Source: Neptuniibacter sp.
GTDB lineage: Bacteria > Pseudomonadota > Gammaproteobacteria > Pseudomonadales > Balneatricaceae
Assembly (NCBI GenBank): GCA_050633685.1
Contig: JBOEHA010000023.1
Span: 29,514-93,513 of the forward strand
DNA length: 64,000 bases
Reading direction: 5' to 3'
Position 1 is the stretch's first letter; each line of letters starts with the position of its first letter. This document shows, one piece after another, positions 2,253 to 14,339 of this stretch. The notes beneath the pieces were generated by a model. It was not told the DNA's origin. It searched no databases and saw only the letters and a program-made list of their open reading frames with translations. The translations under genes and the position numbers were made by a program.

Positions 2253-4379
2253 TTACTCTGCGAAGAAGTCGTAGTCCATTTCATGGCGCGGCTGTTGCAG
2301 GTAATAGCCCTGCACATAACTGACCCCAGCTTTCCACAATGTCACCATCGCTTTGCTGTCTTCGACCAGAGGAGCAATGGTGACTTTGTCCATGTCGGAT
2401 AGGTTCTTAACCAGAGTAAAGAACTGGCGGTCCTGATTCTTATCTTTGCCCAGTTCCTGAATATACAGTCCATCGAGCTTGATGTAGTCAGCGTCGACTT
2501 TTTTGAGCACCTCTTTATCATATGGGGCGCTACCAAAGTGCTTGATGCAGATCTGACATTTGAGCTCATGAATGGCCTTGGCAAATAAGCGGGCTTTTTT
2601 CGGAGCGATGGCTATGTCGCTGTTACTGAGCTGAAAAACCAACTGTTCCGGTTGGAGCTGGCTTTCCTTAAGTGAGCTTGCAAACCATGCCAGTAGCTCT
2701 TCATTCCCCAGACAGTGCACAGAGAGATTGATGATGAGAGTGTTTTTCTGGCCATTGTCTGAAGCGACTTTCAGTTTTGATAAGCAGTTTTCTATGACCC
2801 AGCGGTCTACCTTAATGGCTGTTTCCGGGTCGCTCATTGCGTTCCGGAATTCGTTAGGAGATATTTCTTTTTCTTCCTCTCCCAGCATACGTAGGAGTAC
2901 TTCGTAATGGGCCTCGATTTTTGCTGCGGTCAGGTTTACTACTGGCTGGAATAGCAATTTGAGCTGTTGCGAATCCACCGCCTTACTGACCTGCTTCATC
3001 TCATTGTCATCCAGTTCAAAAGAACTGGTTGAAGAATATAGCTGAACTCCGTTGTTTTCACTTTCAGTGGTCTTAATTTCACCCGCAGCAGATGTTGCGT
3101 GAGCGAGTAGTTCAACCGGAGGAGGAGAGTTGTCGTTAATTAAGGCGATACCAATTGAACATGTGCTTTGCAGGGTTTCATCTGCTATTTTTACTTCCAG
3201 CTTTGCTACATGCTCCCGAATTTTTTCCGCAAATTTATGTGCTTTGTCCGGGCTTGGATCAAGGAAGATTACAGCGAAAATATTATTTTCAATATGAGTT
3301 AACAGGTGTGGATGCTTGATCGCTTTGTTGAGGTGAGTGCCAATTTCTCCTATATAGCGTTCTCTGTGTTCCTGGGAGGTGTTGGCACAGATATCGTCGT
3401 AATTATCCAGAACGATATAGAGTAAGCTGCAATCGTTACCGCCGGATAAAGAACGTTGTATAATCAGATCCAGCTGGCGCAGTAAAAAGTCTTTATTCAG
3501 TAGGCCTGAAACCAGGTTAAGGTCTTCATTCAGGGATTTGCCAATTAGATGATCATCGACCTTTAAGGCGATACGGATCGCTTTTTTACCCTGAAATTGG
3601 GAAGTTGCTAATTCCAGGTTGGTATTGAATTCAGACTGGTCATTTCTTAGTCCAGTTACCTGAAGAGTGTGTTCACCAAAACTATATTGGTTGAGCTCGG
3701 TTAAATGGCTTTGTATTTCCCCGCGGTGTTGCTCTATGAAGCGTTCCGTTATGTCCTTATTTAGAACCAGACTTTCTTCGAATTCGCCAAACAGATCGAG
3801 AAAACTCTCATTGGCGTAGACCACTTTATTATCTTGGCAGCAGGCAATGGCATGTTTAGAACTTTCCATGAGTTGAAAGTTTCGTTTCTCGGTTTTTGCT
3901 AGGGCTGCTCTGGCTTTACGAAGTTGGCGTCGGTGCTCCAGATTTGCCAGTTCTTTCCTGACCTGAAAAAGCAGAAGTTCTTTTTCATCCAGTGGCACAA
4001 TGGCGGTGATTCTGTTTTTTAGGGCTTGTAACTGTTTCTTGCTATCCGCTTCGGGTATCAGTTGAATAACAGGTAGGTCTTTATCAAGTCGTTTAATATG
4101 TTCAATAGCATCAACAGCATTGAATTTCCCCTCTTTAGGAGAGCAGATAACCATATCCCATGAACGCTCGCTGAGTGAATTTAGAAACTGCTTTTCGGTT
4201 TTGATCTGGCGACCGCGAGCTGAAATTCTGGGCGTTCTGAGTAATGCGAGCAGAGGAGCTATATCTTCTGCACTGAGGCCTATAAACAACAGGTGGACGT
4301 GTTTTCTCGAACGCTGCTGGCTGGCACCTTTTGTGTCATGATGCAGTTTTGAGCGGTCGAGTGTTTCTGTGTGCGACAT
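2253..4379 (-). CDS. FimX-like REC-PAS-GGDEF-EAL protein, catalytically degenerate (probable c-di-GMP receptor)
   Basis: GGDEF position reads ENNIF; EAL reads EVLLRM; DDFG position reads KHFG. Adjacent to serB, as fimX is in P. aeruginosa. Confidence 0.75.
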   Translation of the reverse strand: MSHTETLDRSKLHHDTKGASQQRSRKHVHLLFIGLSAEDIAPLLALLRTPRISARGRQIKTEKQFLNSLSERSWDMVICSPKEGKFNAVDAIEHIKRLDKDLPVIQLIPEADSKKQLQALKNRITAIVPLDEKELLLFQVRKELANLEHRRQLRKARAALAKTEKRNFQLMESSKHAIACCQDNKVVYANESFLDLFGEFEESLVLNKDITERFIEQHRGEIQSHLTELNQYSFGEHTLQVTGLRNDQSEFNTNLELATSQFQGKKAIRIALKVDDHLIGKSLNEDLNLVSGLLNKDFLLRQLDLIIQRSLSGGNDCSLLYIVLDNYDDICANTSQEHRERYIGEIGTHLNKAIKHPHLLTHIENNIFAVIFLDPSPDKAHKFAEKIREHVAKLEVKIADETLQSTCSIGIALINDNSPPPVELLAHATSAAGEIKTTESENNGVQLYSSTSSFELDDNEMKQVSKAVDSQQLKLLFQPVVNLTAAKIEAHYEVLLRMLGEEEKEISPNEFRNAMSDPETAIKVDRWVIENCLSKLKVASDNGQKNTLIINLSVHCLGNEELLAWFASSLKESQLQPEQLVFQLSNSDIAIAPKKARLFAKAIHELKCQICIKHFGSAPYDKEVLKKVDADYIKLDGLYIQELGKDKNQDRQFFTLVKNLSDMDKVTIAPLVEDSKAMVTLWKAGVSYVQGYYLQQPRHEMDYDFFAE

Positions 4380-4668: not shown

Positions 4669-4743
4669 TGGCTGGGGTAGGAGGATTCGAACCTCCGCAT
4701 GACGAGATCAAAACCCGTTGCCTTACCGCTTGGCGATACCCCA
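4669..4743 (-). tRNA. tRNA-Gln(UUG)
   Basis: Reverse complement TGGGGTATCGCCAAGCGGTAAGGCAACGGG-TTTTGAT-CTCGTCATGCGGAGGTTCGAATCCTCCTACCCCAGCCA; 75 nt, encoded CCA. Confidence 0.95.
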
Positions 4744-4758
4744 GCATTATCTAAAGCA

Positions 4759-4835
4759 TGGTGGCAATAGCGGGACTCGAACCTGCGACCCTCGCATTAT
4801 GAATGCGATGCTCTAACCAACTGAGCTATATTGCC
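4759..4835 (-). tRNA. tRNA-Met(CAU), elongator type
   Basis: GGCAATATAGCTCAGTTGGTTAGAGCA-TCGCA-TTCATAA-TGCGA-GGGTCGCAGGTTCGAGTCCCGCTATTGCCACCA; 77 nt. G1-C72 pair argues against initiator; downstream of ychF as in Pseudomonas. Ile2 not formally excluded. Confidence 0.9.
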
Positions 4836-4963: not shown

Positions 4964-6055
4964 TTATACGTTGAAGCGGAAGTGCACAACATCACCATCT
5001 TTTACGATGTAATCCTTGCCTTCGAGTCTCCAGCGACCAGCGTCTTTTGCGCCATTTTCGCCGTTGTATTCAACGAAATCATCGTAGCTGACAACTTCAG
5101 CGCGGATGAAGCCTTTTTCAAAGTCTGTATGGATAACGCCAGCAGCCTGTGGAGCGGTTGCGCCGACTTTAACTGTCCATGCGCGTACTTCTTTAACGCC
5201 TGCTGTGAAATAGGTGTGAAGTCCCAGAAGATCGTAGCCAGCACGAATAACGCGGTCTAAGCCTGGTTCTTCCATGCCGAGATCCGCGAGGAACTCAAGG
5301 CGCTCCTCGTCATCCAGTTCAGCTATTTCTGCTTCCAGTTTGTTGCATACTACAACCACGCCGGCGTTTTCAGACGCAGCAAGTTCGCTTACCTGATCCA
5401 GATATGGATTGTCTTCAAAACCATCTTCATCGACGTTTGCGATGTACATGGTGGGTTTGACTGTCAGCAAGTGAAAGGCTTTAACGACCTGCATTTCATC
5501 TTCATTCAGATTCATGCTGCGAACGGGCTTACCTTCTTCCAGAAACGGAATGATGCGCTCCAGCATGGCTTTCTGGGCAACGGCTTCTTTATCACCGCCT
5601 TTAGCCAGCTTTTGAATGCGCTGAAGTTGTTTCTCTGCAGAATCCAGATCTGCCAGAGCCAGTTCCAGATTAATGGTCTCAATATCAGCCAGAGGCTCAA
5701 TTTTGTTGGCAACATGGATGACATTGTCGTCTTCAAAACAGCGAACGACGTGTGCAATGGCATCCGTTTCTCGGATGTTTGCCAGGAATTTATTCCCCAG
5801 GCCTTCGCCTTTGGATGCGCCTGCTACCAAACCGGCAATATCCACAAATTCCATAGCCGTAGGTACGACTCTTTCCGGGCTTACAATCTCTGTCAGCTTG
5901 TCCAGACGGGGGTCCGGCATTGGTACAGTGCCAGCATTAGGCTCAATGGTGCAGAAAGGAAAGTTTTCCGCCGCAATGCCGTTTTTAGTCAGTGCGTTAA
6001 ATAAGGTGGATTTACCAACGTTTGGTAGACCAACAATTCCGCATTTAAAACCCAT
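4964..6055 (-). CDS. ychF: Redox-regulated ribosome-binding ATPase YchF
   Basis: [42 protein letters not shown]-terminus [11 protein letters not shown]. Confidence 0.97.
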
Positions 6056-6075: not shown

Positions 6076-6666
6076 CTAGCTGGCTGAGAAACTGTGTAAC
6101 TGGTTCATGGCTTTGCCCCAGTCGCCGGAAATGGCTAGCTCAAGATAGCGTTCGGCTTCATCTATAGCTGCCAGAGTGGCTTCGCGTTCTTTTGCGGGAG
6201 CCTTATTTAATACAAAACCGCTTACCTGACTACTGTGGCCGGGATGACCAATGCCTAAACGTAAGCGGTAGAAATTTTTGTTGTTGCCGAGTTTGCTGAT
6301 GATGTCTCGCAAACCATTGTGACCACCGTGCCCTCCACCGAGTTTAAATTTGGCAATGCCGGGAGGAAGGTCTAGCTCATCATGAGCGACCAGAATCTCT
6401 TGAGGTGGAATTTTGTAAAAGTTGGCCAGCGCAGAGACTGACTGACCGCTCAGATTCATGAATGTGGTTGGAACCAGCAGGTGAATAACCTGACCATCAA
6501 TCTGAACTTTGGAATATAGCCCGTGATATTTCTTTTCGGGCTTTAGGGGGGAGAGATGTCGAGCAGCAAGCTGCTCGACAAACTCTGCACCGGCATTGTG
6601 ACGAGTTTGGGCGTATTTAGTGCCTGGATTTCCCAGGCCAACAATAAGCTGGATCTTGTCTTTCAT
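6076..6666 (-). CDS. pth: Peptidyl-tRNA hydrolase
   Basis: [33 protein letters not shown]. Confidence 0.97.
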
Positions 6667-7410: not shown

Positions 7411-8352
7411 CTAGCGGAACATCGCGCTGATGGATTCTTCGTTACATACGCGGCGAACGGCTTCAGCCAGCATAGGTGCCAGAGTTAACTGACGAATTTT
7501 TTCACAGTTTTGGGCTGCGTCTGAAAGAGGGATTGTGTCAGTAACGACCAGTTCATCCAGTTCAGAGTTGGTAACGTTGGAAATAGCAGGTCCAGACAGT
7601 ACTGCGTGTGTTGCGTAAGCAATTACACGTTTCGCGCCCTTAGCTTTAAGTGCTTTAGCTGCTTTGCACAGAGTGCCAGCAGTGTCACACATGTCGTCAA
7701 CCAGTACGCAGGTACGGCCTTCAACGTCACCAATAATATTCATTACGTCAGATTCGTTCGCACGCTCACGACGTTTATCGATAATTGCCAGATCGCAATC
7801 CAGAATTTTGGCAACTGCGCGTGCACGAACAACGCCGCCTACATCTGGTGAAACGATCAGCATGTCTTCATATTCCTGATCAGCGATGTCATCCAGCAGT
7901 ACTGGAGAGCCGTAAACGTTATCTACGGGAACACTGAAGAAACCTTGAATCTGGTCGGCGTGCAGATCAACGGTCAGAACGCGGTCAATACCAATTGCGT
8001 CCATCATATCTGCAACAACTTTAGCGGTGATTGCTACGCGAGCAGAGCGTGGACGACGATCCTGACGTGCATAACCAAAGTAAGGAACAACGGCTGTAAT
8101 ACGAGAAGCAGATGCACGACGCAATGCGTCAGCAAGCACAATCAACTCCATCAGGTTGTCGTTTGTTGGTGCGCAGGTTGGTTGAATAATGAAAACGTCT
8201 TTACCACGTACGTTCTCCTGAATTTCAACGCTGACTTCGCCATCGCTAAAACGACCAACATTTGCTTTACCCATAGGGATATCAAGGCGATCGACTACTC
8301 TTCGCGCAAGATCCGGGTTAGCGTTGCCGGTGAAGACCATCATCTTTGACAC
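7411..8352 (-). CDS. prs: Ribose-phosphate pyrophosphokinase
   Basis: GTG start at 8352 gives (M)[14 protein letters not shown], 313 aa; [32 protein letters not shown]. The longer ORF-track start overlaps a tRNA. Confidence 0.96.
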
Positions 8353-8416: not shown

Positions 8417-8491
8417 TGGCTGGGGTAGGAGGATTCGAACCTCCGCATACTGGTATCAGAAACCAGTGCCTTACCGCTTGGCGATACCCCA
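8417..8491 (-). tRNA. tRNA-Gln(CUG)
   Basis: TGGGGTATCGCCAAGCGGTAAGGCA-CTGGT-TTCTGAT-ACCAG-TATGCGGAGGTTCGAATCCTCCTACCCCAGCCA; 75 nt. Confidence 0.95.
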
Positions 8492-8535
8492 ACATTTCCT
8501 CTTGGAGGACCGGCCTCCCGTTGAAAGAGGCGCAG

Positions 8536-8564
8536 ATTATCCCGGATTGATTTTGCAAAGTCAA
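8536..8564 (-). promoter_or_regulatory. sigma70 promoter for tRNA-Gln(CUG)-prs
   Basis: TTGACT-17 nt-GATAAT followed by the GC-rich discriminator CTGCGCC. Confidence 0.7.
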
Positions 8565-8592
8565 ACCAGAAATCTTGGATATATGACAGTTG

Positions 8593-9180
8593 TTAGAGGG
8601 TGATCCAGCTGTGTACAACCAGAGTGATTTTCAGGCCATTTCGAAACAGTTTGATCTTGCGTGGCAGGGCGGGTTCCAGACTGTTATATCTTAGGTATTG
8701 GATCGTCCAGCCGTTTTGTTGCAAGGTCTTTAATCGATTGGATTCGAGGCTGTGCTCAAACTGGCTGTCCGGTGAAGGGAGGCCTCTTATCCACCAATAA
8801 ATGTCACTGATGGGGATATCCCATCCGAGTTGTTGGTAAAGAATGAATTCTGGATCAGGTCCTACAAAAATGCCTTCACCTGATATATCTACAGTTACCT
8901 GGCCTGGAGTGCCTTGTATGGATGCGCCCCCCTGACCTAAAGGGCCGTGAATATCTATCTGGTACTGCTGTTGTTCCTGTAACCATTTAAGGCTGGCAGA
9001 ATTGCTGCTGTCCGGAGTGATGATTCCAATTTTGCCGCTGATATCCCAGTTCTCGAGAGCTTTTAGGGCGGACTGATGGTTTTCCCAGCTATCAGAAGCA
9101 GGAGGCGGTGTCTGGGTATCGATAGAGCTACATGCAGCTAAGAATACGCTGAACGCAGTAATGGTGAGTTTTTTTAACAT
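8593..9180 (-). CDS. lolB: Outer-membrane lipoprotein insertase LolB
   Basis: Lipobox LAAC; W.ISGKIG, LHGPLG-like motif, LGWDIP...YWWIRGLP, QQNGWTIQY; conserved position after the TPR gene. Confidence 0.93.
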   Translation of the reverse strand: MLKKLTITAFSVFLAACSSIDTQTPPPASDSWENHQSALKALENWDISGKIGIITPDSSNSASLKWLQEQQQYQIDIHGPLGQGGASIQGTPGQVTVDISGEGIFVGPDPEFILYQQLGWDIPISDIYWWIRGLPSPDSQFEHSLESNRLKTLQQNGWTIQYLRYNSLEPALPRKIKLFRNGLKITLVVHSWITL

Positions 9181-9184
9181 AAGC

Positions 9185-10879
9185 TTAGTGGGGCCTTATG
9201 GCCTGCTCTGCTTCCTGAAGGTATGGGTTTTCAGGATTGGTTTTTTTGCTTTTTTCCAGCAGTTCTCTGGCTTTTTCTTCCTGACCAGTAGCCCAGTATG
9301 TCTGAATCAAATGGCTGGAAACTTCTGGGTCGGCAAACATGGCGTGTGCTTTCTCCAGATAGGGTATGGCTTCCTGGTAGCGTTCCAGCTTGAATAAAGC
9401 CCAGCCCATCGAATCCAGAATGGCTGGGTCGTCAGGTTCTTTATCCAGTGCTGATTTGATCAGGTCGTAGGCTTCTTCATATCGATCAGTATGCAGTAGA
9501 AGTGTATAGCCGAGAGCATTTTTGACGGTCGCGTTGTCTGGCTCTCTTTCCAGAATGCGTTTGAAGTCTTGCTCCGCTTTGGAAAAATCTGAATCTTCAA
9601 TCAACATCGCTCGAGAATATAGGAGAGTCGTGTTGTCCGTATGAATGGCCAGGGCGTCTTCGAGTACGGTGAGTGCTTCCTCTTCGTAATTATGTAGATT
9701 GAGCCATTCAGTTTCTAGCGCAAATAGTCTTGGTGCCTGAGATGGCACAGACGCACGTGCATCTTTGAGGATCAGTTGTACTTTGTTTTTGTCTTCAGGT
9801 CGGTTTAATAATCCAGTAGCTCGAGATATTGATTGAAGTACGTTGCCGCCATGACGGACTCTGCTGTAATGCTCTACGGCTTTATTTATGTTGCCGCGAG
9901 CTTGTTCGATATGTCCCAGATAGTAATTAGGGGAGCTATCCTCTGGTTTCAGAGTAAACAGGCTTTTAAGAATTTTTTCTGCACTATCTAGCTGCTCGTT
10001 TTCGAGCATTAATAAAGCCAGATAGTAGGCTAGTTGATGATCGTTAGGGTGATTGGCTATCAGGGCTTCAGCTTGTTCGGTTGCGGAGACGTGTTTTTCA
10101 GTCTGAAACAACAGTTGGGAATATAACAGGTGAAGTTGACGGTCATCAGGGTTGTGTTCAAAGGCGGATTGCACCAATTCCGTCGCTTCATAGAGCCTGT
10201 CCATCTCCCTAAGCAGCTCGGCTTTGCGCATAACTGCTTCGATGTTTTTGGGGTTCAGAAGCAGAGTACTGTCAAAGGCTCTTAAAGCATCATTAAGTTT
10301 ACCCTGCGCTCTGTATAAAAGAGCCAGAGTTAATTCCAGATCTGCATTGGGTTTGTTTGTTTCGGCGTGCTCATTGAGCATTTGGATCAAGGCGGTAATC
10401 ACTTGATCTGAAATGTTGTTGCTTTGGGAACGAATTAAAGCCAGGGTGCGAGCATCATTATATCCCAGGGCCTTCTCTATTAAAGGAAGCGCTTCTTCAT
10501 ATTTGTTCTGGTGCAGAAGGATGCTGGCTTCGATCTGGTAAGGCTCAGGGTTTTCCGTATCGACTTCTTTCCATACGCTGGCTGCAGATCTGATTTTTTC
10601 GGCATCGCGCAAGTATTGGGCAATGCGGGTGGCTCTTTCTGCAACGGCAGGATCGCGGGTTTTTTTAGCTTGGGTCAGGTAATTTTCGAAAGCGATGGGA
10701 AACTGCCTGCGTTGCCCGGCGATTTCGGCAAGCAGCAGATCGTATAAAGATTCCTGATTGAATTCGCCAGCAATATAAGTGGCAGGCTCAACCGGTTTTT
10801 CAACCACCTTGCTGGAATTACTCGTGCATCCTTGCAGTACTAAAAGGAAGCAACTTATGAGTAGAAGTTTATTTTTCAT
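9185..10879 (-). CDS. TPR-repeat lipoprotein (PA4667-like) upstream of lolB
   Basis: Start moved to 10879 (MKNKLLLISCFLLVLQGC, lipobox); LYDLLLAEIAGQR, NALGYTL, AILDSMGWALFK TPR motifs. Confidence 0.85.
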   Translation of the reverse strand: MKNKLLLISCFLLVLQGCTSNSSKVVEKPVEPATYIAGEFNQESLYDLLLAEIAGQRRQFPIAFENYLTQAKKTRDPAVAERATRIAQYLRDAEKIRSAASVWKEVDTENPEPYQIEASILLHQNKYEEALPLIEKALGYNDARTLALIRSQSNNISDQVITALIQMLNEHAETNKPNADLELTLALLYRAQGKLNDALRAFDSTLLLNPKNIEAVMRKAELLREMDRLYEATELVQSAFEHNPDDRQLHLLYSQLLFQTEKHVSATEQAEALIANHPNDHQLAYYLALLMLENEQLDSAEKILKSLFTLKPEDSSPNYYLGHIEQARGNINKAVEHYSRVRHGGNVLQSISRATGLLNRPEDKNKVQLILKDARASVPSQAPRLFALETEWLNLHNYEEEALTVLEDALAIHTDNTTLLYSRAMLIEDSDFSKAEQDFKRILEREPDNATVKNALGYTLLLHTDRYEEAYDLIKSALDKEPDDPAILDSMGWALFKLERYQEAIPYLEKAHAMFADPEVSSHLIQTYWATGQEEKARELLEKSKKTNPENPYLQEAEQAIRPH

Positions 10880-11106
10880 GAAAACCTGCAATTTTACTCT
10901 GACATCCCTGCTGTTTGGGTCACTATAGATGAATAAAGTGGCGCTTGTCAGTACATATGGGTAGTTTACCTTTATATATGGCAACCATATATTGAATTAA
11001 GTTCCAGGATTTGACCTGAGTTTTTTAACCTTTGAGGCAAAGCGTTGTATCATAGCGCGCTAATTTGGTTATGGGCTTCGAAAGCTCTCATAGTTTGGCG
11101 GTAGTA

Positions 11107-12381
11107 ATGGCGTTATTGGCACTTGGCATAAATCACAAAACAGCTCCGGTTGATGTGCGCGAACGGGTTGCGTTTGCACCTGAGTCGATGGCTGAAGCTA
11201 TGCGTGCGGCTAAAGTGTCTGCTGATCTTAAAGAGATCGCCATTCTTTCTACCTGCAACCGAACAGAATTGTATTGCTCTTCAAAACTTGAAGGTTCCCG
11301 GGCTCTATTAGAATGGCTCGGTGAATATCATGGTCTTGATCCGGCTCAGTTGCAGGGTTGTTCCTATGCTTTCTGGGATGAGGATGCTGCTCGCCATATG
11401 ATGCGTGTAGCCAGTGGTCTGGATTCTCTTGTGTTAGGTGAACCTCAGATTCTGGGGCAATTAAAATCAGCCTACAGTGTTTCTCAGGAAAATGGCCATG
11501 TGGGCGCTGAGCTTGGGCGTTTGTTTCAGCAGGCCTTTTCAGTTGCCAAACAGGTAAGAACCGATACGGCGATTGGAGAAAACCCGGTTTCTGTTGCCTA
11601 TGCAGCAGTCAGTCTTGCTCAGCATATTTTTGCGGAAATGAGCACCAGTAAGGCTTTGCTGATCGGCGCAGGAGAAACTATAGAACTGGTTGCCAGGCAC
11701 CTGTCGCAAGCAGGAGTTAAAGAGATTACCGTCGCTAACCGGACGTTGAACCGAGCGCTGGCACTGGCCGAGGAGTTTTCCGGTAAAGCGATTCTGCTGG
11801 GGGATATACCTGAAGCGTTAGCGGATGCGGATATTGTTATCGCTTCTACCGCCAGTCAGTTACCAATTTTGGGTAAAGGTGCGGTCGAGTCAGCGCTGAA
11901 AAAGCGTAAACATCGTCCGATCTTTATGGTGGATATTGCGGTACCTCGGGATATTGAAGCCGAGGTTGGTGAGCTGGATGATGTTTACCTTTATACCGTT
12001 GATGATCTCAAAGAGGTTATCGAAGAAAATCAGCGTACTCGTGAGACTGCGGCACAACAAGCGGAAGAGATAATCGAGAGTGGTGCGCATGACTTTATGC
12101 GTCAGTTGCGCTCATTGGATGCGGTTGATGTTCTTACCTTGTTCAGGGGTCAGGCTGAATCGCTTAGGGATCAGGAACTCGATAAAGCACTGAAACAACT
12201 TGAAAATGGTAAACCTGCCGAAGAAGTAATCGCGATGCTGGCACGGGGTTTGACCAATAAAATGCTCCATCACCCGACGATCCAGATGCGTAAAGCAAGT
12301 GCAGATGGCCGCGGTGATCTGCTAGAACTGGTGCAGGAACTGTATCAGTTGAGCGAATTTTCCAAAAACGAGAAGAAATGA
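11107..12381 (+). CDS. hemA: Glutamyl-tRNA reductase
   Basis: [44 protein letters not shown]; start moved to the ATG at 11107. Confidence 0.97.
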
Positions 12382-13466
12382 AAGAATCAATTTTAAATAA
12401 GCTGGAAAAGCTCAGTGATCGTTATGAAGAGCTTGCCGCTTTGCTGTCGGATGCTGAAGTAATATCTGATCAGAATAAATTCCGTGATTATTCGATGGAA
12501 TATTCTGAACTGGAACCGGTAGTGCAATCTTTCTCTGCATATCAGCAGGCGAAAGAAGATCTGGAAGAAGCCGAGATGATGATGGCTGACAGTGATCCGG
12601 ATATGCGAGAGATGGCTAAGGAAGAATATCCTTCTGTAAAAAGCCGGATAGAAGAGTTGGAAGCCGATCTTCAGATCCTGCTATTACCTAAAGATCCGAA
12701 TGATTCGCGTAATGCCTTTCTGGAAGTTCGTGCCGGTACTGGTGGTGACGAGGCTGCAATCTTTGCTGGTGATCTGTTTCGTATGTATTCCCGTTATGCG
12801 GAAACTCAGGGTTGGCGTGTTGAAATTGTCAGTGCCAATGAAGGTGAGCACGGCGGCTATAAAGAGGTTATTTCCAGAATCGTCGGAACCAATGTGTATT
12901 CCCAGTTAAAGTTTGAATCTGGCGCGCACCGGGTGCAGCGGGTTCCGGAAACTGAATCGCAAGGGCGTATCCATACATCGGCCTGTACTGTCGCAATTAT
13001 GGCTGAGATGGATGAGTCTGCAGAAATTGAAATTAACAAAGCTGATCTGCGTGTGGATACCTTCCGGGCATCGGGCGCGGGTGGTCAGCATGTCAACAAA
13101 ACAGACTCGGCTATTCGACTGACCCATATCCCTACGGGGGTAGTTGTTGAGTGTCAGGAAGAACGTTCGCAGCATAAAAACCGGGCCAAAGCGATGTCGC
13201 TTCTGGCTTCCAGGCTTCAAGCTGCAGAGCAGGAACGTCAGGCGGCTGAGATGGCTAACACGCGTAAGAGCCTTGTTGGTAGTGGAGATCGTTCGGAAAG
13301 GATCCGAACCTATAACTATCCACAGGGACGGGTGACCGATCATCGTATCAACCTGACTCTATATAAGCTGCAAGAGGTTGTTGCAGGTGAGTTGCAGCAT
13401 ATTATTGAACCACTTCTTAATGAGTACCAGGCAGAACAGCTAGGTGCGTTGTCTGAAGAGAGTTAA
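12378..13466 (+). CDS. prfA: Peptide chain release factor 1
   Basis: [12 protein letters not shown] (PxT), [30 protein letters not shown]. Confidence 0.97.
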
Positions 13467-13502
13467 CTGTCAGATTCAGGGCCTTTAATGGCCCTTTTTA
13501 TT

Positions 13503-14339
13503 ATGCAGATCCAAGATATATTAAAGCTCAGTCAGCGACTGGAAAAAGTCAGCGAATCACCGCAGCTTGATCTGGAATTGATGTTATGTCACTTGTTGGA
13601 TCGGCCTTCCAGTTACTTATACACCTGGCCGGAAAAACAACTGGATCCGGACGTAACAGATTCTTTATTGAAGATGTTAGAGCGCCGAGAGCAGGGCGAG
13701 CCTGTGGCTCATATTATCGGCCATCGTGGTTTCTGGAGCTTTGACCTGGAAGTCTCTCCGCATACATTGATACCCCGTCCAGATACAGAGGTTCTTGTTG
13801 AAAAGGCGCTTGAGCTTTGTGACGTTGAAAATGCACGAGTTGCAGATCTAGGCACCGGGACGGGAGCTATTGCCCTGGCTTTGGCAAAAGAGCATCCGGT
13901 TTGGCAGGTGGTCGCTTCAGACTATGTGCAGCCGGCGGCTGAGTTGGCAGAGCGTAACCGCCAGAGATTGCATCTGAATAATGTCAAAGTTGTTCAAGGT
14001 AGTTGGTTCGAGCCTCATTCAGGTCTGTATGACCTGGTCGTCAGTAATCCTCCGTATATAGACCCTGAAGATCAGCATTTGCAGCAGGGGGATGTTCGTT
14101 ATGAGCCGATCAGCGCTCTTGTGGCTGATAATAAAGGTATGGCGGATATTGAGCTGATCAGTGATCAAGCGAGAAGTTTCTTGTCTCCCGGAGGCTGGCT
14201 TTTGTTTGAGCATGGCTATGATCAGGGTGATAAAAGCAGACAGTTATTGCAAAAGCTGGGCTACAAACAAGTGGATACCTGTCGAGACTATGGGCAGAAT
14301 GAGCGTGTGACTTTTGGTTGCTGGTGCCCGCAAGAGTGA
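13503..14339 (+). CDS. prmC: Release factor glutamine methyltransferase
   Basis: GEPVAHIIG, TLIPRPDTE, DLGTGTGAIA, VSNPPYI. Confidence 0.96.
   Translation: MQIQDILKLSQRLEKVSESPQLDLELMLCHLLDRPSSYLYTWPEKQLDPDVTDSLLKMLERREQGEPVAHIIGHRGFWSFDLEVSPHTLIPRPDTEVLVEKALELCDVENARVADLGTGTGAIALALAKEHPVWQVVASDYVQPAAELAERNRQRLHLNNVKVVQGSWFEPHSGLYDLVVSNPPYIDPEDQHLQQGDVRYEPISALVADNKGMADIELISDQARSFLSPGGWLLFEHGYDQGDKSRQLLQKLGYKQVDTCRDYGQNERVTFGCWCPQE

Follow-up and report, generated by a model that had tools for sequence, protein, structure and literature searches.

The ispE gap between lolB and tRNA-Gln in Neptuniibacter fits an ancient, family-wide replacement of the MEP pathway by a mevalonate operon at the gene level

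The closest described systems belong to relatives of Neptuniibacter. Among the entries of Table S1 of a 2026 survey that are drawn on here, Amphritea, Marinobacterium, Neptunomonas and Nitrincola are assigned MEV, not MEP, and Neptuniibacter does not appear (PMC13001223). The sections of the same survey used here describe Legionella as devoid of PmvK and mostly of HmgS, so that it stays under the survey's threshold for the MEV label (PMC13001223). In the 2017 Liberibacter genome paper the mevalonate cluster of Marinobacterium is the closest relative of the one in 'Candidatus Liberibacter', the two agreeing in gene order and exceeding 50% identity at the amino-acid level (PMC5291501). NCBI already names Neptuniibacter proteins HMG-CoA synthase. 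Neither the mevalonate nor the MEP pathway is mentioned in the genus taxonomy papers of Neptuniibacter and Amphritea, which include an in silico chemotaxonomy of isoprenoid quinones. Pathway replacement is already recorded for related genera, and our analysis leaves the current understanding unchanged. What it adds is detail: clean junctions at former MEP sites, an ispA-dxs pair, pdxJ and thiG that are all retained, an operon whose place next to polB is conserved, and a predicted promoter and leader that are conserved in the spacer at the position of ispE.

We analysed a window, which is a stretch of 64,000 nucleotides of DNA from an assembly of Neptuniibacter sp. (3.49 Mb, 48 contigs, scored 100% complete). 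The locus of interest lies on the minus strand and has the gene order TPR gene, lolB, tRNA-Gln(CTG), prs, ctc/L25, pth, ychF. The TPR-repeat protein gene (9185-10984) is a 599-aa open reading frame with TPR-family matches only, all of which are under the cut-off. It is followed by lolB, the gene for the outer-membrane lipoprotein insertase (8593-9180; TIGR00548, 143.5 bits, cut-off 59.6), whose product shares 93% identity with its counterpart in a Neptuniibacter MAG. Then come tRNA-Gln with the anticodon CTG (8417-8491; called by ARAGORN and matched by Rfam RF00005 with 63.5 bits) and prs, which encodes ribose-phosphate diphosphokinase (7411-8352; NF002320, 511 bits, cut-off 297). The prs profile alignment begins at residue 33 of a long open reading frame that overlaps the tRNA; judged from the sequence and from family alignments, the GTG at 8352 is the likely start of prs. 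The distance between tRNA-Gln and prs is 64 bp. Further along the same strand are ctc, for ribosomal protein L25 (6701-7291; NF004130, 231.9 bits, cut-off 199), pth, for peptidyl-tRNA hydrolase (6076-6666; TIGR00447, 202.6 bits), and ychF (4964-6055; TIGR00092, 537 bits). Divergent from the TPR-lolB unit, the plus strand carries hemA (11065-12381; TIGR01035, 468.8 bits), then prfA (12378-13466; 566 bits) and prmC (13488-14339; 285.5 bits). As a side observation, the minus strand encodes at 2253-4379, just beyond a tRNA-Met/tRNA-Gln pair, a sensor protein of 708 aa whose GGDEF and EAL domains are of the kind linked to cyclic-di-GMP turnover; it has no connection with the ispE finding.

The lolB stop codon TAA occupies 8593-8595, and the spacer between it and tRNA-Gln on the minus strand, at 8492-8592, measures 101 bp. 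This is the position that ispE holds in sister families. In all ten ispE loci examined, taken from sister families within the order, the gene order is TPR-lolB-ispE-tRNA-Gln(TTG)-prs-ctc, with a homologue of the TPR gene upstream of lolB in 10/10. There ispE is an open frame of 291-350 codons between lolB and tRNA-Gln, and only 8-20 nt separate its stop codon from the start of the tRNA. Within the window's own family, the gap between lolB and prs is just 147-335 bp in each of 30 loci. The absence of ispE is meaningful because of these two sets of loci, and the comparison confirms that in the ancestral arrangement ispE sat exactly where the spacer of the window is now. A search of the spacer for a remnant by tblastn with ten sister IspE proteins gave noise only, the best E value being about 0.05 for a 321-nt target. 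These results bear out the description given in an earlier note on this DNA, according to which 101 bp separate the lolB stop from tRNA-Gln, neither an ispE reading frame nor a remnant of one is present, and the lolB-ispE-prs order is otherwise conserved.

The tRNA genes of the locus vary in their own right. The tRNA-Gln next to prs has the anticodon CTG in the window and in 17/30 family loci, and TTG in six family loci; in the remaining 7/30 no tRNA is called beside prs, and these sequences contain no N. All ten sister-family loci have TTG at this place. The window also holds a second tRNA-Gln, with the anticodon TTG, at 4669-4743 next to tRNA-Met, and the pair spans 4669-4835.

We then turn to the genome as a whole, which was searched with curated models for each MEP gene; every one of these searches detected the MEP-using control genomes. 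In the Neptuniibacter genome the best match to the dxr model scores 13 bits (cut-off 316), the best to ispD 40.6 bits (cut-off 181), and ispF has no match at all. No match at E <= 1 was found for ispG and ispH, both of which are detected in nine MEP-using control genomes. The best match to the ispE model scores 17 bits (cut-off 139) and is the mevalonate decarboxylase, and the ten sister IspE proteins have no tblastn match at E <= 0.01 anywhere in the genome.

In the sister genome G164 the order is uppS-cdsA-dxr-rseP, and here cdsA and rseP are 7 bp apart. For ispD and ispF the order in G164 is eno-ftsB-ispD-ispF-truD-surE, and here the distance from ftsB to truD is 5 bp. The ispH site, ileS-lspA-fkpB-ispH in G164, reads here as fkpB followed by 152 bp and then by pilus genes. 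The gap at ispE belongs to a set of neat excisions. As regards ispG, it lies near purA in the sister genomes G164 and G337, and in the genome studied here the gene after purA is suhB-like and convergent with it. In the sister family of G164 and G337 (f15), ispG lies near hflKC-hisZ-purA; its usual place, as in E. coli and Pseudomonas, is the rodZ-ispG-hisS neighbourhood. The location of ispG in the sister family is non-canonical, and therefore the comparison shows its absence alone and no clean junction.

Could the MEP genes simply have moved, or lie in an unassembled part of the draft, with the MEP pathway still running? The assembly is indeed a draft in 48 contigs, and dxs is present. However, the genome is scored 100% complete, six separate genes are missing from it by models that detect every control genome, and tblastn with the ten sister IspE proteins is empty. 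Moreover, ispE exceeds the cut-off in none of 151 genomes from 16 genera of the family, many of those listed being single-contig assemblies, and the genes that once flanked dxr and ispDF are now separated by only 5-7 bp. We regard this explanation as effectively refuted. The earlier note had offered a choice between relocation of ispE and replacement of MEP by mevalonate-pathway genes: the first part fails, with no ispE in a 100% complete genome, and the second holds at the level of genes. The search that it had proposed, MEP against mevalonate genes, finds dxr, ispD, ispE, ispF, ispG and ispH absent and a mevalonate set with a type 2 isomerase present; an intact ispE with a full MEP set elsewhere in the genome, which would have meant simple relocation, was looked for and not found.

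One refinement is that dxs is retained. It matches TIGR00204 with 747 bits (cut-off 466), and the FPP synthase gene ispA is directly upstream. DXP also feeds the synthesis of vitamin B6 (PLP, through pdxJ) and of thiamine (through thiG), and pdxJ and thiG are both present in the genome. Going by these established pathways, dxs has probably been kept because pdxJ and thiG still consume DXP.

The mevalonate genes form an operon on another contig (C9:38818-44966), which is followed by the gene for DNA polymerase II (polB). The first gene encodes HMG-CoA reductase (C9:38818-39852, or L005:6819-7853; 344 aa; PF00368, 287 bits, cut-off 27). The solved enzymes closest to it are of class I (E 3e-64), an assignment made less certain by the fact that the protein scores 282 bits on the class I equivalog model, under the cut-off of 442, and is short. 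It is without some 85 N-terminal residues, and its alignment starts at about residue 90 of the solved class I enzymes. This gap is no annotation artefact, because just 122 bp are available upstream before tolC. Gene 2 encodes a type 2 IPP isomerase (TIGR02151, 373 bits, cut-off 281); the mevalonate route yields IPP only, hence an isomerase is needed. Gene 3 encodes HMG-CoA synthase (TIGR01835, 507.7 bits, cut-off 360). Genes 4 and 5 encode a mevalonate-kinase-like GHMP kinase of 322 aa (TIGR00549, 145 bits, below the cut-off of 163) and a mevalonate kinase of 309 aa (TIGR00549, 178 bits, cut-off 163), and gene 6 encodes diphosphomevalonate decarboxylase (TIGR01240, 294 bits, cut-off 171). The genome has only three GHMP kinases; they stand side by side on contig C9 and all belong to the mevalonate operon. 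Acetoacetyl-CoA thiolases, of which there are three (433-489 bits, cut-off 241), are encoded outside the operon.

The classical mevalonate gene set appears to be complete by these matches, the phosphomevalonate kinase step being its weak point. No protein of the genome reaches the cut-off of the phosphomevalonate kinase model; on TIGR01220 (cut-off 165.7) the 322-aa candidate reaches 42.6 bits. Apart from one weak galactokinase match, every solved relative of this candidate is a mevalonate kinase. The two adjacent kinases (C9:42065-43975, or L005:10066-11976) are 23% identical to each other. The decarboxylase scores 124 bits on the phosphomevalonate decarboxylase model (cut-off 475); it fits the diphosphate-using type far better, and therefore a second kinase step is expected. 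We assign this step to the 322-aa kinase-like paralogue, presumably the candidate phosphomevalonate kinase, because of its 23% identity to the neighbouring kinase, its conserved position and the diphosphate-type decarboxylase.

The same facts can be taken to mean that the mevalonate route is non-classical and that the extra kinase is not a phosphomevalonate kinase, the order of steps being modified or the substrate a different one. The failure of either GHMP kinase to reach the phosphomevalonate kinase cut-off, the nature of the candidate's solved relatives and the low identity between the two kinases would all suit such a route, as would the example of Legionella, for which the survey sections used here report no recognisable PmvK (PMC13001223). 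We consider it unlikely, since the decarboxylase prefers the diphosphate model (294 bits, cut-off 171) over the monophosphate one (124 bits, cut-off 475) and the kinase-like gene is found at the same position of the operon in different genera. The survey itself, in the same sections, withholds MEV from Legionella for want of PmvK and HmgS and yet grants it to the genera related to Neptuniibacter (PMC13001223).

How old the exchange is can be judged from its spread. Diphosphomevalonate decarboxylase is found in 149 of the 151 family genomes, and the two without a match are 96% and 86% complete. By comparison, of the 201 genomes of the order that were searched with the ispE model, 190 have the gene. 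Kinase-like gene, kinase, decarboxylase and polB follow one another in this order in 22 of 24 family loci. HMG-CoA synthases that carry the names Neptuniibacter, Marinobacterium, Amphritea, Aliamphritea, Nitrincola and Pontibacterium share 75-100% identity, the named genera being tied to the window's family through locus titles and the names attached to homologues. The swap is ancient and family-wide, no peculiarity of one organism, which is the second refinement of the earlier note. These data fit a single gain and a single set of losses in the common ancestor of the family, followed by vertical descent.

A recent horizontal arrival of the operon in this strain, coupled with a recent deletion of ispE at strain level, would be an alternative. 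Mevalonate operons are patchy in Gammaproteobacteria: of 400 genomes sampled evenly over the class, 50 have the decarboxylase above its cut-off, most of them small, which agrees with the earlier note's statement that a minority of the class has mevalonate-pathway genes. A second, unrelated swap in another family of the order would also lend some credit to this alternative. Set against this, loss and gain are common to all 16 sampled genera of the family, the operon adjoins polB in 22/24 loci, and the lolB-prs gap is short in 30/30 family loci, so that we hold a recent arrival to be very improbable.

The other family deserves a remark of its own. Three genomes of genus g67 in family f52 of the same order (G201, G248 and G288; 98-100% complete) lack ispE and have the decarboxylase, which in their loci (L087-L089) is 37-38% identical to the Neptuniibacter enzyme and stands in a different gene context. 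In the sister genus g118, ispE is present and the decarboxylase absent. On these comparisons g67 looks like a second, independent MEP-to-mevalonate swap in the order. We also looked for the donor of the Neptuniibacter operon among homologues of its HMG-CoA synthase; the best 120 are all from the own family and do not reveal a source.

The reading that we favour, with a probability of roughly 95%, is that an ancestor of the family acquired a mevalonate operon and then abandoned the MEP pathway, the loss of which left several clean scars, the missing ispE among them. The order of events would have been gain of the operon and then loss of the six committed MEP genes. Since then, acetyl-CoA would have been converted to IPP by way of mevalonate, the type 2 isomerase would provide DMAPP, and the mevalonate-kinase-like paralogue would perform the phosphomevalonate kinase step. 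DXP synthase would survive only for the synthesis of vitamin B6 and thiamine.

Finally, the spacer is not empty. The earlier note had placed a sigma70 promoter in it, and one sigma-70-like site is indeed predicted, on the gene strand at 8536-8564 (minus): TTGACT (8564-8559) and GATAAT (8541-8536), set 17 nt apart, which together match at 10/12 positions and are followed by a discriminator-like GCGCC run. Shuffled sequence of the 1.1-kb region yields 1.2 such sites on average, so that the one observed is at chance level. The site carries weight because it is conserved across the family and not as a single match: of the 23 family loci that bear the tRNA, 20 have a TTGAC(A/T/C)-16-18-GAnAAT site that precedes it by 39-51 nt, and most of these have the GCGCC run after the site. 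Runs of this type resemble the GC-rich discriminators found at stable-RNA promoters under stringent control. In the sister loci the last 110 nt of ispE contain no good promoter-like site, with two weak matches in ten loci, and no counterpart of the promoter or the leader. We also considered the spacer as a relic of the 3' end of ispE; such a derivation could not be demonstrated.

Between the site and the tRNA lies a 5' leader of about 37 nt (8495-8531, minus strand) with a predicted hairpin; the 42 nt that precede the tRNA have a minimum free energy (MFE) of -14.5 kcal/mol. The corresponding segment (8492-8533 in the window) forms hairpins in most family members, with sequences that vary between genera. 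Over 22 family leaders the mean MFE z-score against shuffles is -1.87, and 15 of them are under -1.5. RNAalifold, run on an automatic MAFFT alignment of the 22 leaders, predicted no consensus pairs, and no Rfam family matched in the leader. The hairpin is a prediction drawn solely from single-sequence folds and z-scores. Sister families do not have such a leader because there the tRNA abuts ispE.

Taking promoter and leader together, we infer that tRNA-Gln, and perhaps also prs, is transcribed from the spacer promoter, and the arrangement would have arisen with or after the loss of ispE. After the deletion, a dedicated promoter with a structured leader would serve tRNA-Gln and probably prs. 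More tentatively, a new promoter of the stringent type and the structured leader could have arisen to replace the read-through from lolB-ispE that tRNA-Gln, and probably prs, had lost. That this happened in the ancestor of the family, and that the promoter-leader unit has been kept across genera since, is a suggestion we make with the same reserve. If true, the locus would offer a datable birth of a promoter that compensates for the truncation of an operon.

For annotation pipelines and metabolic models, the practical consequence is that missing MEP genes should not cause such genomes to be flagged as incomplete. Judged from gene content, these bacteria should be naturally insensitive to fosmidomycin-type inhibitors of Dxr and may be sensitive to inhibitors of class I HMG-CoA reductases. 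More generally, the family offers a neat case from nature of the replacement of a whole pathway, in which six scattered genes disappeared from their conserved sites, dxs stayed because DXP has other uses, and an operon gained once was inherited vertically.

Compared with the canonical gammaproteobacterial lolB-ispE-(tRNA-Gln)-prs locus, order and strand of TPR gene, lolB, tRNA-Gln, prs, ctc, pth and ychF are identical here. The differences are that ispE is missing, that the anticodon of the tRNA is CTG and not TTG as in the sister loci, and that a promoter-bearing spacer of 101 bp, the promoter being predicted, replaces the ispE-tRNA junction of 8-20 nt. Regarding the pathway, 'Candidatus Liberibacter' is an alphaproteobacterial obligate parasite, and its cluster is probably related by horizontal transfer. 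Legionella and Coxiella represent another type that likewise consists of Gammaproteobacteria with mevalonate genes; unlike Legionella, Neptuniibacter has HMGS and a candidate second kinase. The closest match is to Marinobacterium, Amphritea, Neptunomonas and Nitrincola: their HMG-CoA synthases are 75-80% identical to that of Neptuniibacter, the order kinases-decarboxylase-polB is the same across the family, and there is no real difference between their system and the one described here.
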